Part shown: positions 49,770-57,281 of the stretch, one piece after another
Layout of the letters: each line of letters starts with the position of its first letter
Numbering within the stretch: position 1 is the stretch's first letter
Assembly (NCBI GenBank): GCA_041665345.1
Contig: JBAYJA010000001.1
Location: 329,206 to 393,205, forward strand
Length of the DNA: 64,000 bases
Direction of reading: 5' to 3'
Origin: Patescibacteria group bacterium
GTDB lineage: Bacteria > Patescibacteriota > Patescibacteriia > PEXW01
Program-made: the position numbers and the translations under genes
Notes under the pieces: generated by a model
Told to the model about the DNA's origin: nothing
Seen by the model: only the letters and a program-made list of their open reading frames with translations
The model's database searches: none

Positions 49770-49884
49770 TTTTTCGGTTTTGGTGGGGCAGCGAGTATGG
49801 TGAATGGTTGTTGTTGAAGTCAGCCCAAACCCAAACCTCCAACCATACGAGCGTCCACACCCAAACCATGTAACCCACCAAACT

Positions 49885-50358
49885 ATGCCCAAGCGCGAAA
49901 ACTACCTTTCCTGGGATGAGTGCTTCATGCAAATGGCGCACCTCATTGCCGAACGTTCCAAAGACCCCAGCACCCAAGCTGGAGCAGTGATTGTGAATGA
50001 CAACAAGATTGTGGTGGGTTTGGGCTACAATGGCTTTCCCCGTGGCATTAAAGACGATGAACTGCCATGGGAACGGGAAGGCGCCATGCTGGACACGAAG
50101 TACGCCTACGTGGTGCACGCTGAGGAAAATGCCGTGTACAACGCCAATGCCAGCACCAAAGGCTGCACGCTCTACACCACGCTTTTCCCCTGTAACGAAT
50201 GTGCAAAAACCATTATCCAGAATGGAATTACCGAAGTGGTGTACACCTCTGACAAGTACAGCGACACGGATATTTGGAAAGCGTCCCGGAAGTTACTCTC
50301 CCTAGCAGGGGTAACCTGCCGATTATTCAACCCACAATTCAAACTCAAATTAGTATAG
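49885..50358 (+). CDS. deoxycytidylate (dCMP) deaminase
   Basis: HAEENAV and PCNECAK zinc-binding motifs; ATG at 49885 preferred (ORF open from 49804). Confidence 0.85.
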   Translation: MPKRENYLSWDECFMQMAHLIAERSKDPSTQAGAVIVNDNKIVVGLGYNGFPRGIKDDELPWEREGAMLDTKYAYVVHAEENAVYNANASTKGCTLYTTLFPCNECAKTIIQNGITEVVYTSDKYSDTDIWKASRKLLSLAGVTCRLFNPQFKLKLV

Positions 50359-50359
50359 T

Positions 50360-50917
50360 ATGGTCATTGGCATTACTGGTTTACCCGGCGCAGGGAAGGG
50401 GACGGCTGCAGCGTACCTGGTGGAAAAGTACGGCGGCGTGTCCAAGCAGTTTTCTGGGCCCTTGCGGGACATTGTGAAGCGCTTGCACCAGTCTGTGACG
50501 CGGGAGCACTTGCAGGAGCTTGCCAAAGCTTTGCGCGGGATTTTTGGGAATAATGTGCTGGCCGAGACGCTGCTCGGGGATCTGAAAGCCGATACCACGC
50601 CGCTGGTGGTTATGGAGGGTTTTCGGTACCACGATGAGTACAAAATATTGCGGCAACACCCAGACTTCCAATTTGTGGCAATTGAAGCTTCGTTTGAAAC
50701 CCGGCTGGGGCGTATCCAGCAACGCACGGAAAATGTGGGTGATGGGCAAATCACAGCCGAGTCTTTTGCCAAGCAGCATGAGCACGAAACCGAGAAAGCC
50801 ATTCCAGAGCTCATTGCTTTGGCTGACCATCACATTGATAACAGTGGCAATGTTACCCAGCTTTACGCACAGCTTGATGCGCTGATGACCAAACTCGGCC
50901 ATGCACCTAAGAGTTAA
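50360..50917 (+). CDS. P-loop nucleoside/nucleotide kinase-like protein (paralog A of three)
   Basis: GITGLPGAGKGT Walker A; shares ...DGFR..DE....R..PDF..V.I.A....RL.RI..R... with the genes at 55322 and 55892. Confidence 0.55.
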   Translation: MVIGITGLPGAGKGTAAAYLVEKYGGVSKQFSGPLRDIVKRLHQSVTREHLQELAKALRGIFGNNVLAETLLGDLKADTTPLVVMEGFRYHDEYKILRQHPDFQFVAIEASFETRLGRIQQRTENVGDGQITAESFAKQHEHETEKAIPELIALADHHIDNSGNVTQLYAQLDALMTKLGHAPKS

Positions 50918-51323
50918 ACTTCTGCACCCAGACGCAACCCTGCCCAAGTACGCCCACGACGGCGATGCGGGGTTTGATGTGTTTGCGAAAGAGGATGTCA
51001 CCATCCCAGTTGGTGAGCGTCGGGCGATCTACCTTGGCTTTTCCGCGGAAATCCCCGACGGAACAGTCGCGCTAGTTTGGGACAAAGGGGGGATTGCCGC
51101 TAAGCAAGGTATAACCTCACTGGCCGGTGTTATTGATGCCGGGTACCGGGGGGAGTGGTTGGTGGTGTTGCATAACCTTGGTTCTGAGCCGTTCACTTTT
51201 GCCAAAGGCATGAAGGTTGCACAAGTACTCATTCAGCAGGTGGAGCGCCCAACCATTGAAGTTGCTCAGGAACTTTCCGAAACCGCCCGCGGGGCAGGGA
51301 AGTTCGGCAGTACAGGCCAATAA
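50901..51323 (+). CDS. dut: dUTP diphosphatase
   Basis: GFDVFA, AGVIDAGYRGE, C-terminal RGAGKFGSTG motifs. Confidence 0.9.
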   Translation: MHLRVKLLHPDATLPKYAHDGDAGFDVFAKEDVTIPVGERRAIYLGFSAEIPDGTVALVWDKGGIAAKQGITSLAGVIDAGYRGEWLVVLHNLGSEPFTFAKGMKVAQVLIQQVERPTIEVAQELSETARGAGKFGSTGQ

Positions 51324-51483: not shown

Positions 51484-51771
51484 GTGGTAAAAGCAGTTCT
51501 TTGCAAGCTCGTTTCCTCGAATGATACCGGGGAGCACGAATGTCCTGATGGCTCAATGGTTGGCGATCTCATTCGGCAAGCCAAAATACCTTTTGACCTT
51601 GATTCCGAAAAGGTGATTCGGGTGCACCTCCCGGAAGATGGGCGAGCTGCATGGGTTGAAACCGTAGGAATGAGTGATGAAGTTGACTATGGTGACTTTG
51701 TGGGCTACATCATTGTGCCAAAGACCTTTATTCTCTACGAACATTTGAGTAAGCCCATAAACGAGACCTAG
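51484..51771 (+). CDS. hypothetical small protein
   Basis: GAAGGAGG RBS plus GTG; 95 aa; followed by a terminator. Confidence 0.45.
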   Translation: MVKAVLCKLVSSNDTGEHECPDGSMVGDLIRQAKIPFDLDSEKVIRVHLPEDGRAAWVETVGMSDEVDYGDFVGYIIVPKTFILYEHLSKPINET

Positions 51772-51787
51772 TTGCTATCCTGGCATG

Positions 51788-51816
51788 AGCCGACATTCTT
51801 CTAGTGTCGGCTTTTG
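51788..51816 (+). terminator. rho-independent terminator
   Basis: gccgaca-ttcttctag-tgtcggc followed by TTTTG. Confidence 0.7.
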
Positions 51817-51819
51817 ATC

Positions 51820-51847
51820 TTGCCAAATTCTTCAAACATGCTAAGGT
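51820..51847 (+). promoter_or_regulatory. promoter TTGCCA-N16-TAAGGT (copy 1 of a duplicated promoter module)
   Basis: attgccaaattcttcaaacatgctaaggta; near-identical module at 52821. Confidence 0.5.
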
Positions 51848-51953
51848 ACATCCTTCTTTGAAAACTAAAGAAATCCACGCGCATTTTTGTGTAATTGTTG
51901 TAACCCGGCCAGCCCAGCATGGGCCAGCCACAACCACGAAAGGTAGGCCAGTC

Positions 51954-52757
51954 ATGAAAAATGACAAGCCAACTTTGACTTCAGGGATTCCACGCGGAGT
52001 GGAAACGCAAACCCTTTTGGCGCTACAAAAGCAAGGAGTCTCAATTGCTGACTATGCTGCCATAGGTACAAATTTTGCCCTGCGTGTCGAAATCGTTGCG
52101 ACGCTCATGAAACACCGATTGTTCGCCACGCCAGAAGAGCAAATGACTAGTCTGCTTCGTATTAACGAACAGGTCTGGAAAGACCCGACTATCACTATGG
52201 CGGCAATGAAAGCCATTGGCGATCCTCCGCCGTGTCCAATGCTAGATGAAATACACCTGTATTGCGTCGTCCTGCTATCGGAAACCGGGGATCCAATCCG
52301 GACCTTTGCACGTAATTGGGCAGCCTGCGAGTTCGTCCATAGTGGCAACACGTGGAAGTACGATGGTCTGGTCTTCACCCCTCAGATTGTGCGTGTTCGG
52401 GAGAAAGCCATCCCTCGTCCCGTTGGCCTCCGTTGGGCGATTGCCGAACTGGGTCGCACGTATCTATACGACGACAAAATACCAGATGTGTTAGCAGAAC
52501 TCGATCGAACCCAAACCATGGTTATGGGTCAGGAATTACCACTCATTGCAGCATTGCATCCAAAATGGGTAACGCAAATGAACACGACAGATATTCCTCC
52601 CGTATTTGCGCCTGACCTTGAGGTTTCACTCATCGGGGAGAGTCATTACGACCATCGGCCGTTACTCTTTTTCAGGAACCGTGGTGATGGAGTGGGGCTT
52701 ATTCCGGACCTCATTGGCCGTACAAACGACGGCTATAGCTTTGGCTTCTTCCGCTAG
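51954..52757 (+). CDS. hypothetical protein
   Basis: 267 aa from the internal ATG (ORF open from 51804); no recognised domain. Confidence 0.45.
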   Translation: MKNDKPTLTSGIPRGVETQTLLALQKQGVSIADYAAIGTNFALRVEIVATLMKHRLFATPEEQMTSLLRINEQVWKDPTITMAAMKAIGDPPPCPMLDEIHLYCVVLLSETGDPIRTFARNWAACEFVHSGNTWKYDGLVFTPQIVRVREKAIPRPVGLRWAIAELGRTYLYDDKIPDVLAELDRTQTMVMGQELPLIAALHPKWVTQMNTTDIPPVFAPDLEVSLIGESHYDHRPLLFFRNRGDGVGLIPDLIGRTNDGYSFGFFR

Positions 52758-52857: not shown

Positions 52858-54441
52858 ATGCCAAAGGAAATCCTGTCCAACGAGCGCGACATCTTTGCCA
52901 TTACCGGCCTGCCCCCGGAGGTCTTGGCTGTGGGTATGGCCAAGTACTCCCGGTCTGCCGCCTCCATTAAAGACACCATTGCCGAGCTGACCGAGGAGAA
53001 ATCTGCCGAATTCCACGAGAAGTGGGTTATTGGCTATGGGGACGCGTCTGTGGCGGATATGGCTGTCATTGCCCTGGCCTGTGAAAACGTCTCTATATTG
53101 GCAAGTAAAGCCATTGAGGACCACCGTTTGGCCAGCTACCAGGAGAAGTCCACCCGGTATATCAGCTTTGAGCGGCAGGTCCAGCCAGATGGCTCTGCCT
53201 TGCCCCGGCGCTACTACCGGCCCACACCCATTGCAGAGTCTGCGCATGCTGGTTTGTACGAACGAACCTGCGAGCAGATGTTTGACGCGTACAGCGATTT
53301 GACGCAAACCATGGTGGAGTACTACCGACGGGAATACCCCATGCCGGCGGATGGCAAGGAAAAACTGTACACGGCGAAGTTGAAAGCGCGAGCCTTGGAC
53401 ATTGCACGGTACGTCCTGCCTGCAGCTACCCTGACGAATTTGGGCTGGATTACGTCGGCCCGTAGTTTGCGGCGGGCGATTTTCAAAATGGGTCAGTCAG
53501 ATTTGGATGAAGTGCGAAAAATTGCCAGTGAGGTGCAGCACGCAGCCACGAGCCCAGCGCACAACCCACAAGCGCAGAAAGTGGAACCCTTACTCTGGAA
53601 AGCGGAAGAGCAAACCGACCCTATTGTCCAAGAGCTTGTCCAGAATTTGCGCGCCAATCTCAACCTCACAGTGAAAGGTGCACCTACCCTTATCAAGCAC
53701 ACAGAGCCCACACCCTTTGCAGCCGCGCGCCGCCGGCGTATTCGGGCTATGGCCGCCACACTCCTGGGTGACCTGCATGTACTGGACAATGAACCCCGTG
53801 TTACCTTCCACCCACATGTCCATCCCGAAGTGGAATTGGCTACGTCCCTCCTCTACGAAGAGACGCAGTTTAGCTACGGGCAAATTCAAGAGGTGGTCAT
53901 GGGTCTCAGTGCTGCGGAACGGGCTGAAGTCATTGCGGCAGGAACCGCAGACCGTGGATCGCATGATTTGATTGGCCGGCCATTTGAAGTGGGAAACTTG
54001 GTCTTTGACACGCTCATGGACTATGGTGCCTTCCGGGATTTACAACGGCATCGCATGTGCACGCAAATCAACCAGCCACTGACGGCAGAGCATGGGTTTG
54101 AAAAACCGCCCGCACCCATGGGTATGGAAGCCGCAGGTGCCTTGGACATTTTTGAAACCGTTTTCCAAGAAGTCCAAAGTGCGTACCGCATTCTGGCAGC
54201 TGACTTCCCGCACGAAGCAGCGTACGTCTTGCCTTTGGCTACCCGCAAGCGCACGCTCTTTAGCATGAATGCGCGGGAGCTGACCCATTTGGTAGAATTA
54301 CGTTCGCGCTCCGGTGGCCATGTCTCCTACCGGTGGATTGTGCGGGACATGTTGGAGCAAGCCAAAGCGCACTACCCAGAGTTGGTTCGGCATATTCGCA
54401 TTGCGGACATTGACTTCGTAGCGGATTTTCACAAACGGTAA
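52858..54441 (+). CDS. thyX: tandem-duplicated flavin-dependent thymidylate synthase (ThyX-ThyX fusion)
   Basis: Domain 1 has EDHRLASYQEKSTRY (ThyX RHR-x7-S motif with DHR but Ser retained); domain 2 has DLQRHRMCTQINQP (RHR retained, Ser position is Pro). Confidence 0.65.
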   Translation: MPKEILSNERDIFAITGLPPEVLAVGMAKYSRSAASIKDTIAELTEEKSAEFHEKWVIGYGDASVADMAVIALACENVSILASKAIEDHRLASYQEKSTRYISFERQVQPDGSALPRRYYRPTPIAESAHAGLYERTCEQMFDAYSDLTQTMVEYYRREYPMPADGKEKLYTAKLKARALDIARYVLPAATLTNLGWITSARSLRRAIFKMGQSDLDEVRKIASEVQHAATSPAHNPQAQKVEPLLWKAEEQTDPIVQELVQNLRANLNLTVKGAPTLIKHTEPTPFAAARRRRIRAMAATLLGDLHVLDNEPRVTFHPHVHPEVELATSLLYEETQFSYGQIQEVVMGLSAAERAEVIAAGTADRGSHDLIGRPFEVGNLVFDTLMDYGAFRDLQRHRMCTQINQPLTAEHGFEKPPAPMGMEAAGALDIFETVFQEVQSAYRILAADFPHEAAYVLPLATRKRTLFSMNARELTHLVELRSRSGGHVSYRWIVRDMLEQAKAHYPELVRHIRIADIDFVADFHKR

Positions 54442-55891: not shown

Positions 55892-56440
55892 TTAGGTTTT
55901 TTGCTGAAACGTCTTCAGGTAGTGGCTGACCAAATTTTCCAGGTGTTGCCGTGTGTCATTGTTCAAAATCGTGTACGCACATTTGGACAGGAGTGTTGGC
56001 ACCTCGCTTTCATTGGGGTGCATATCCTGTTGGTGCAGGGTTTTCGGTGTCAGCCTGCCTTCCATGGGGTCTCGGCGCCGGCGCCGAAGTCGTTCTAGCC
56101 GCATGGTGAAAGGTGCTTGCACTCCAACGAGATGGAAATCTGGTCGGCTCCGTATTGGCGCAATATCTGCAAGGCGCCGAATGCCGTCAATGACGAGTAG
56201 GGGTTTGGCTGTTGCCACATGGAGGCGTAGTGCCTCAGCCAGAAAGTACTCACCACCATTTTGCTTTATGGACAAGCTGAGCGCCGCAACGTGTTCGCGG
56301 GTTGGTTCAAGCTGCAGCGCCTTGAGGATTTTCCAGAGTGGGTCTGACATGAGGTAGACTTCTGCGTCAAATTTTTTTCGCAAAATCTCCGCTATTGTCC
56401 CCTTGCCTGTGCCGGGTAGGCCAATGAGACCAAGAATCAT
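55892..56440 (-). CDS. P-loop kinase-like protein (paralog C)
   Basis: MILGLIGLPGTGKGT...LVIDGIRRL...PDFHLVGVQAPFTMRLERLRRR... Confidence 0.55.
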   Translation of the reverse strand: MILGLIGLPGTGKGTIAEILRKKFDAEVYLMSDPLWKILKALQLEPTREHVAALSLSIKQNGGEYFLAEALRLHVATAKPLLVIDGIRRLADIAPIRSRPDFHLVGVQAPFTMRLERLRRRRRDPMEGRLTPKTLHQQDMHPNESEVPTLLSKCAYTILNNDTRQHLENLVSHYLKTFQQKT

Positions 56441-56549: not shown

Positions 56550-57281
56550 ATGACCAAAGTCAAACGGGGCGCATTTATTATGGTGGATGGCATTGACGGC
56601 TCTGGCAAAGGTACGGTGGTGGATGCCTACGGTGCCTGGGCAAAGCAGAAGCAATTGACGGTATTTGACGTGCGCGCGTACGCCAAGGGGTCTGGGAAAT
56701 TGCCCCAGCCAGCTGATTGGCAGGATGCGGATTTGCTCCTTTCTGCTGAACCAACCCATGCCGGGGTGGGCCGGGTGATCCGGGAAGAGATTGTGCACGA
56801 CAATGGTCGAGACTACTCGGGGTACGTTACCGCTGAAGCTTTTAGTCTGGACAGACTCATTCTCTACAAGTCTGTCATTCTCCCTGCACTTGCAGCCGGG
56901 AAAACAGTCGTGCAAGAACGGGGCGTTTCCTCATCCATTGCTTACCAGCCAGCCCAAGGCAAGGTGACATTGCAACAATTACTGAAGTTGGAAGGGAATG
57001 CGTTTGCCCTTAAGTTTCGGCCTGACTTACTGTTAATCACGGTCTGCCCGCCCGACGTCTGCATGCGCCGCTTGCAAGCACGAACGAAGAAGCAGGACAA
57101 GGCAATTTTTGAAAAGCGCGCGTTCCTGGCCAAGCTCGATAAGCGTTACCGCAGCCCGTGGTTCATTAATCTCTTTCAGAAGCGGGGGAGTGTGGTGGGA
57201 TTTTTGGACACCAATGATACTTTCCAGGAGACGCAGCAGGAGAGCGTGGGATACATTAACGACTTCTTGACCAAAGTATGA
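56550..57281 (+). CDS. thymidylate-kinase-family protein (dTMP kinase-like)
   Basis: VDGIDGSGKGT P-loop in Tmk-like context, about 243 aa; substrate specificity not certain. Confidence 0.55.
   Translation: MTKVKRGAFIMVDGIDGSGKGTVVDAYGAWAKQKQLTVFDVRAYAKGSGKLPQPADWQDADLLLSAEPTHAGVGRVIREEIVHDNGRDYSGYVTAEAFSLDRLILYKSVILPALAAGKTVVQERGVSSSIAYQPAQGKVTLQQLLKLEGNAFALKFRPDLLLITVCPPDVCMRRLQARTKKQDKAIFEKRAFLAKLDKRYRSPWFINLFQKRGSVVGFLDTNDTFQETQQESVGYINDFLTKV

Follow-up and report, generated by a model that had tools for sequence, protein, structure and literature searches.

A tandem ThyX protein from a Patescibacteria genome with the active-site motif divided between its two halves

Canonical flavin-dependent thymidylate synthases (ThyX, or FDTS) are homotetramers, as in Thermotoga maritima (TM0449, PDB 1O26) and Mycobacterium tuberculosis (Rv2754c, PDB 2AF6 and 3GWC); four identical subunits form four active sites. 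A domain-duplicated form was noted in Chloroflexi in 2009 by Valas and Bourne, with the remark that it 'has not been characterized' (PMC3224940); a split of the active-site motif is not described there. The present study concerns a protein of this tandem type, 527 amino acids (aa) long, encoded in 64,000 nucleotides (nt) of DNA from a Patescibacteria group bacterium (assembly GCA_041665345.1, contig JBAYJA010000001.1, positions 329,206 to 393,205 of the forward strand). This whole stretch is called the window, and positions are counted from its first letter. Both halves of the protein, D1 and D2, are ThyX domains, and the conserved active-site residues are shared out between them. This split is the signature of a large, widespread and already annotated family of tandem ThyX proteins, whose structural logic seems not to have been set out or put to the test before; beyond membership of that family there is nothing unusual about the protein.

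In the structures of M. tuberculosis and Helicobacter pylori ThyX, each active site is assembled from three subunits (PMC6514825, section 3.1). The RHR motif belongs to subunit A; it binds the phosphates, ribityl chain and isoalloxazine of flavin adenine dinucleotide (FAD), and its first Arg also binds deoxyuridine monophosphate (dUMP). R199, the equivalent of R174 in T. maritima, is on the same subunit. S71 and R190 of subunit B (T55 and R165 in T. maritima) touch the FAD phosphates, and S105, R107 and Y108 of subunit C (S88, R90 and Y91 in T. maritima) bind dUMP and cover the reacting atoms together with the Q103 backbone (PMC6514825). PBCV-1 ThyX agrees with this scheme, one monomer contributing Ser88 and Gln89 and the other Arg182 (PMC3498832). 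In the reaction itself, dUMP is activated by R174 (PMC8316439), and methylene transfer from the flavin carbinolamine needs S88, R90 and Y91 (PMC8316439, PMC11940539). Ser88 is no longer seen as a catalytic nucleophile; with Tyr91, it is thought to help the carbinolamine hydroxyl to leave (PMC11940539, PMC8316439). In T. maritima numbering, the three contributions can be summarised as role 'a' (R78-R80 and R174), role 'b' (T55 and R165, on the FAD phosphates) and role 'c' (the Glu-x-Ser-x-Arg-Tyr loop, on dUMP and flavin).

The presence of two ThyX domains in one chain, which an earlier sequence-only reading of the window had proposed, is confirmed far beyond chance. The entire protein matches Pfam Thy1 (PF02511) with 155.7 bits (E = 1.5e-45; gathering cut-off 24.8 bits). 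A half-by-half scan finds the second domain as well as the first, with D1 matching over aa 20-226 (93 bits, E = 2.7e-26) and D2 over aa ~371-507 (68 bits, E = 1.2e-18). Used as a single sequence against the sequences of the Protein Data Bank (PDB), the whole protein gives marginal matches only (E 0.13-0.77), and profiles were therefore needed for each half; these were derived from half-alignments of the window protein and 52 related loci. The D1 profile matches the M. tuberculosis ThyX structure with E = 5.2e-11 (aa 53-212 aligned to 62-213), and the D2 profile matches M. tuberculosis ThyX with 6e-9 and H. pylori ThyX with 1.3e-6; T. maritima ThyX is also among the structure matches of the half-profiles, ranking after M. 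tuberculosis ThyX. Compared with each other by hhalign, the D1 and D2 profiles align over 173 columns (probability 87%, E = 4e-6).

An AlphaFold2 (AF2) model of the full chain, built on 117 family sequences, has a mean predicted local distance difference test score (pLDDT) of 92.6 and a predicted template-modelling (TM) score of 0.91. In this model the order of helices and strands is alike in aa 20-231 and aa 315-505, three helices join the halves, and a fixed packing between the two domains is predicted with confidence. Foldseek matches in the PDB are ThyX chains of M. tuberculosis and T. maritima (probability 1.00; TM score 0.60-0.65 on the target, ~0.3 on the query); all ThyX chains among these matches are single-domain ones, and no fused ThyX was found there. 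Across loci, the linker is ~40 residues shorter in the subfamilies of 450-490 aa, and the D1 segment measures ~220 versus 257-271 aa.

Active-site residues were mapped through alignments to T. maritima ThyX (a chain with a 12-residue tag) and M. tuberculosis ThyX (Table 1). Neither domain contains the full RHRxxxxxxxSxRY motif; D1 has DHR....S.RY, D2 has RHR....P.TA, and the motif is complete only when the halves are combined. The residues read as the sequence-only reading had given them: in D1, DHRLASYQEKSTRY at 88-101, with the Ser kept and the first Arg of RHR replaced by Asp; in D2, RHRMCTQINQPLTA at 397-410, with RHR kept and the Ser replaced by Pro. The complementary loss that it proposed persists after profile alignment and is in fact wider than claimed, in that D1 also holds R184 and S64, and D2 also R482 and H488. 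D1 is without the first RHR arginine and without an R174 equivalent, D2 without the dUMP loop and without an R147 equivalent; the dUMP-activating Arg (R482) and the phosphate-binding Arg (R184) are each present once per chain. The label 'catalytic Ser' in that description is to be corrected, as Ser88 is now believed to assist the departure of the carbinolamine hydroxyl.

Table 1. Active-site positions of T. maritima ThyX and the residues aligned with them in the two halves of the window protein.
T. maritima ThyX	D1	D2
H53	D62	not assigned
T55	S64	R374
E58	D67	E377
R78	D88	R397
H79	H89	H398
R80	R90	R399
E86	E96	N405
S88	S98	P407
R90	R100	T409
Y91	Y101	A410
R147	R184	Y456
N163	S200	N471
R165	R202	R473
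R174	M211	R482
H178	none	probably H488 (spacing from the Arg longer by two residues than in canonical ThyX)

The partition is the same throughout the family. A residue census covered 303 full-length fused relatives: 117 centred on the candidate phyla radiation (CPR) and DPANN archaea, 114 centred on Chloroflexi, and 72 from viruses, the first two sets (231 sequences) being referred to as cellular. In 303/303, D1 has ExSxRY and lacks the first RHR Arg, and D2 has RHR and LR...H and lacks the Ser loop; no member with two complete motifs was seen among them. D1 S64, E96, S98, R100 and Y101 occur in every sequence and R184 in all except one (302/303). No D1 half has Arg at the R78 position, where Asp, Ser, Asn, Trp and other residues occur; at the R174 position of D1 nearly every sequence has Leu or Met, and a few have Phe, Ala or another residue. 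RHR is found in 303/303 D2 halves, and R482 and H488 in every relative with a filled column; the S88, R90 and Y91 positions vary freely, and the R147 position is Tyr in nearly all. An identical protein (100%) from a Patescibacteria metagenome-assembled genome (MAG) is found in NCBI, JGI and ENA as 'FAD-dependent thymidylate synthase'. What the sequence-only reading had singled out as an interesting case is thus not peculiar to this genome.

Kerfeld-, Uhr- and Magasanikbacteria and Woesearchaeota have proteins with 47-80% identity. Among the candidates scored, 2,999 proteins are relatives at E <= 0.001, nearly all of the best 120 being 450-567 aa long; relatives span 405-567 aa. At least 599 relatives were confirmed in a scan of one genome per species, in which the sources include CPR bacteria, DPANN archaea (Woese-, Aenigmat-, Iain- and Nanoarchaeota), Methylomirabilota, Entotheonella, Anaerolineae and Chloroflexia, Armatimonadota, Acidobacteriota and Myxococcota. 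A Chloroflexia member as query gives 7,130 proteins at E <= 1e-10. Viral relatives are on 79 contigs, mostly of 60-530 kb, giant-virus bins included.

The window protein and the domain-duplicated ThyX of Chloroflexi are one family. The 465-495-aa proteins of Anaerolineae, Chloroflexia and Thermoflexales show the same partition and full-length identities of 32-38%; they differ in that their linker is shorter and that they have Ser at the R78 position of D1 and His at the His53 position, where the window protein has Asp in both cases. Among phage proteins, the 491-aa 'thymidylate synthase' of Microcystis phage LMM01 is predicted to share this two-domain fold over its full length (BFVD, TM score on the query 0.73), and gp50 of Tunturiibacter phage Tunturi_5 is 32% identical over the full length, with dUTPase and dCMP deaminase (dCMP, deoxycytidine monophosphate) genes nearby. 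Viral fused ThyX proteins are more eroded than the window protein; the R80 position of D1 and the T55, E58 and R165 positions of D2 are mostly lost.

Given this partition, the protein is probably a working flavin-dependent thymidylate synthase in which two ThyX subunits were fused by an ancient internal duplication, with two composite sites per dimer. It would convert dUMP, methylene-tetrahydrofolate and NADPH to deoxythymidine monophosphate (dTMP). D2 would contribute role 'a' only, through R397-H398-R399, R482 and H488, and D1 role 'c', through E96, S98, R100, Y101 and R184; role 'b' would most likely come from D1 of the partner chain, through S64 and R202. A dimer of the fusion is predicted because one site needs three domains. 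In such a dimer, two chains would pair as a pseudo-tetramer in which two sites are complete and each chain has one FAD. The remaining two sites would be reciprocal pseudo-sites, with 'a' from D1 and 'c' from D2, unable to run the canonical chemistry; two complete and two degenerate sites are expected because the published structures place the two residue sets on different subunits of a single active site. The residues lost by each half all belong to this reciprocal site. We infer dimerisation, the FAD stoichiometry, the 'b' donor and enzyme activity on these grounds. The fold of each half and the catalytic residues are those of canonical ThyX, and the site would follow its three-subunit logic; the differences are that there are two domains per chain and that two sites, in place of four, are predicted per four domains.

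The sequence-only reading had suggested a covalent pseudo-dimer with the motif split between halves and one composite site per chain. This is supported, since the partition matches the published subunit roles, with the stoichiometry as a prediction. It had also spoken of subfunctionalisation; duplication and complementary loss fit that description, but the term is generous, and the simplest reading is that two of four symmetric sites were lost, each half keeping what the surviving sites need.

The donor of role 'b' can be approached through the viral sequences. In the 72 viral members, D2 positions 374, 377 and 473 vary freely: the T55 position is H, R, K, D, N or E, and the R165 position is P in 25, R in 19, Q in 7, and other residues in the rest. 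The D1 equivalents persist, with S64 in 72/72 and R202 in 60/72. The D1 segment GYG(H/D)xSVA(E/D)xA is also close to the canonical VGHFSVLEHA of M. tuberculosis. For both reasons, alignments moderately favour the partner-chain D1 as the likely 'b' donor. The nearest alternative keeps the same two composite sites but takes role 'b' from D2 of the partner chain, which would put the live FAD sites side by side across the true two-fold axis. It draws on the cellular members, where D2 R374, E377, N471, R473 and H477 (the T55, E58, N163, R165 and N169 positions) are kept in 231/231. In addition, two neighbouring FADs in ThyX have their adenosine monophosphate (AMP) riboses turned towards one another (PMC6514825), which would fit a D2/D2' pair. 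Against the viral variation and the near-canonical D1 segment, this arrangement is unlikely, though it deserves consideration.

Several points weigh against the account preferred here, with D1 as 'b' donor and two composite sites per dimer. In cellular members D2 R374, E377, N471 and R473 are invariant or nearly so; both halves keep the 'b' positions there, and the 'b' assignment therefore comes from the viral sequences alone. The replaced residues of the D1 pseudo-site are conserved by lineage, with Asp at the R78 position in 116/117 CPR-centred sequences and Ser in 109/114 Chloroflexi sequences, which differs from what free decay would predict. The protein scores 74 bits against TIGR02170, the NCBIfam thyX equivalog, which was built for single-domain ThyX and has a cut-off of 87.9. 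A second thymidylate synthase is possible outside the 64-kb window. Finally, in the part of the literature that was covered, no biochemical or structural description of any fused ThyX, of its complementary split or of the predicted stoichiometry was found, other than the 2009 remark (PMC3224940).

The lineage conservation could mean that the pseudo-sites have been put to another use, such as binding a regulatory nucleotide or docking NAD(P)H or a second flavin. Besides Asp at residue 88 and its Ser counterpart in Chloroflexi, Asn at the H79 position in most, R90 (the R80 position), invariant in the 231 cellular members, and Tyr456 in place of R147 in nearly all D2 halves would agree with this; in M. 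tuberculosis ThyX, NADP+ can take the place of FAD in its site (PMC6514825). Viral members speak against it, as their R78 position is D, S, N, W, K or T and their R80 position mostly P or Q; moreover, the dUMP-loop positions of D2 vary freely in all sets, and covariation between D88 and R374 was not found. Re-use therefore seems improbable. A stronger form of the same idea would be an obligate half-of-the-sites enzyme in which D2 is an 'RHR + Arg + His' module, D1 carries two of the three roles, and the pseudo-sites persist because they now serve something else, such as sensing nucleotides allosterically or docking a pyridine nucleotide. If true, this would explain why replaced residues are conserved within cellular lineages; it, too, has a low likelihood. 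As a separate candidate, a salt bridge between Asp88 and Arg374 filling the empty FAD-phosphate pocket is ruled out, since Chloroflexi members have Ser at 88 and yet Arg374 is invariant.

A functional context is provided by the gene neighbourhood (Table 2). The ORF (open reading frame) starts with ATG, preceded by AAGG ~10 nt upstream, and its stop codon is at 54439-54441. On either side are genes for enzymes that make dUMP or use dTMP, and this deoxypyrimidine cluster supports a link between the fused ThyX and the step from dUMP to dTMP. The association recurs: within 6 kb of 81 other fused-thyX loci, relatives of the dCMP deaminase are found at 20, of the dUTPase at 18 and of the thymidylate kinase (Tmk) at 14. 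In phage Tunturi_5, thyX directly follows the dCMP deaminase gene, and the dUTPase gene is ~2 kb upstream on the opposite strand. ThyA was not found in the window or in the 81 loci by tblastn with an approximate Escherichia coli ThyA query, a weak negative that for this organism covers 64 kb of genome.

Table 2. Features of the tandem thyX gene and of its neighbourhood in the window.
Feature	Position	Strand	Basis
Tandem (domain-duplicated) ThyX, 527 aa, whole gene	52858..54441	+	ORF list, database identity, AF2 model
D1, ThyX domain, aa ~10-231; dUMP-loop and FAD-AMP-side residues kept	52885..53550	+	Pfam Thy1 and profile match
D1 'flap' HEKWVIGYGDASVADMAVI; S64 = T. maritima T55 / M. tuberculosis S71; D62 at the His53 position	53014..53070	+	alignments
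D1 motif DHRLASYQEKSTRY, residues 88-101; Asp at the R78 position; E96, S98, R100, Y101 kept	53119..53160	+	
D1 R184 = T. maritima R147 / M. tuberculosis R172	53407..53409	+	alignment to M. tuberculosis ThyX
Helical linker between the halves, aa ~232-310	53551..53787	+	AF2 helices 237-250, 255-270, 287-302
D2, ThyX domain, aa ~311-527	53788..54438	+	Pfam Thy1 and profile match
D2 motif RHRMCTQINQPLTA, residues 397-410; RHR intact; P, T, A at the S88, R90, Y91 positions	54046..54087	+	
D2 LRSRSGGH; R482 = T. maritima R174 / M. tuberculosis R199; H488 probably H178	54298..54321	+	alignment
dCMP deaminase (makes dUMP)	49804..50358	+	Pfam dCMP_cyt_deam_1 5.9e-25
P-loop kinase-like gene, ~183 aa	50360-50917	+	
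dUTPase (makes dUMP)	50901..51323	+	Pfam dUTPase 1.1e-25
P-loop kinase-like paralogues, ~183 aa	55322-55876 and 55892-56440	-	
Thymidylate kinase, Tmk (uses dTMP)	56550..57281	+	Pfam Thymidylate_kin 7e-23

The neighbourhood also bears on whether the protein could be a ThyX-derived paralogue with another substrate or product, for instance one that acts on uridine monophosphate (UMP) or dCMP or makes a hydroxymethyl product. Some ThyX-like enzymes do use other substrates, e.g. the polyoxin UMP C5-methylase PolB; the score under the TIGR02170 cut-off and Asp in place of His at the His53 position would be in keeping with a change of this kind. All residues known to bind or activate dUMP are nevertheless present once per chain, the cluster of dCMP deaminase, dUTPase and Tmk recurs around the gene, no ThyA was detected in the window, and sources annotate the family as thymidylate synthase; a different reaction is accordingly very doubtful. 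An artefact, whether a decaying pseudogene or a pair of neighbouring thyX genes merged through a frameshift or assembly error, is excluded by one unbroken ORF in hundreds of independent assemblies and in isolated phages, an equal mean column identity (47%) in both halves, and the confident AF2 model.

Complementation between ThyX subunits has a precedent. In 2004, Leduc and colleagues reportedly obtained active heterotetramers from complementary inactive ThyX mutants, the separate chains being mixed in vitro. There, as here, sites are made from subunits that each miss a different residue, and the fusion would be a natural, hard-wired version of that experiment. A parallel outside the ThyX fold is the monomeric herpesvirus dUTPase, in which the subunit of an oligomer was duplicated and fused and complementary motif loss then left fewer composite sites; its fold is unrelated, and it has one site per monomer as opposed to the two per dimer predicted here. 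The ThyX of Chlamydia trachomatis (CT632) was reportedly described by Griffin and colleagues in 2005 as an active FDTS and is said to be ~529 aa long, twice the usual size; it is a candidate member of the tandem family. If it does belong, the activity of the fused architecture is already established. Chlamydial ThyX is active in NADPH-oxidase assays (PMC3498832), and was omitted from early phylogenies for lack of sequence identity (PMC6171736).

Some further observations concern the distribution of the family and its variable positions. Fused ThyX is common in very large viral genomes, among them IMG/VR contigs of up to 529 kb, including GVMAG bins, and phage PP885688.1. At the His53 position of T. 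maritima (aa 62, nt 53041-53043), the window protein and 89/117 close relatives have Asp; His is kept in 114/114 Chloroflexi-type sequences and in all but two of the 16 viral members inspected. In T. maritima, His53 has been mutated in PDB entries 4GTF (H53A) and 4KAR/4KAS (H53D). Eukaryote data sets contain two full-length relatives with ~49-50% identity, one an MMETSP transcript and the other a EukProt gene model, which could be contaminating CPR/DPANN DNA or a real transfer. CPR/DPANN-type proteins with 33-39% identity are also found in several MAGs labelled 'uncultured Gammaproteobacteria' or 'Methanosarcinales', some of which also have the kinase, deaminase and Tmk genes nearby; the taxonomy given to these bins seems questionable.

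As to the other neighbours, the three kinase-like paralogues flanking thyX are 27-36% identical to each other. They match PRK08356, (d)CMP/adenylate kinases and the kinase-like part of NF041025 only weakly, with scores below threshold, and 12-20 of the 81 loci have relatives of them no more than 6 kb from fused thyX. They may be deoxynucleoside monophosphate kinases of a salvage cluster. The dCMP deaminase has a partial match of 85 bits to the deaminase part of NF041025, the 'anti-phage dCTP deaminase' (cut-off 400). Deaminase and kinase-like domains occur together as in NF041025, but here as separate, directly adjacent genes in reverse order. An anti-phage system of this type was rejected, as the matches are at the level of domains only (20-85 bits versus 400), and the deaminase and kinase-like pair is most likely plain nucleotide metabolism. 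Two ORFs directly upstream of thyX, candidate genes of 317 aa (51804-52757, + strand) and 95 aa (51484-51771, + strand), have no Pfam or NCBIfam match and no relative in the 81 related loci. The rest of the window is ordinary chromosome, with genes for an AddA-like helicase-nuclease, PheS/PheT, GyrB, NusG, GatB and MiaA; tRNA and tmRNA genes were not found in its 64 kb. Nearly all long ORFs are on the + strand and the cumulative GC skew climbs steadily over positions 1-64000, which would fit a single replichore of a small CPR chromosome.

ThyX is an antimicrobial target. In a homotetramer, each mutation strikes four sites and three roles together, and the roles are hard to separate. A natural fusion in which these roles sit in separately mutable halves would be a ready-made tool for their dissection, with a simple predicted stoichiometry of one FAD per 60-kDa chain. 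This is a very large family, found in no fewer than 600 species-level genomes as well as in many large viruses, and dominant in CPR bacteria, DPANN archaea and Chloroflexi. A correct functional model of it matters for annotation, because motif and equivalog tests designed for single-domain proteins fail on tandem ThyX.

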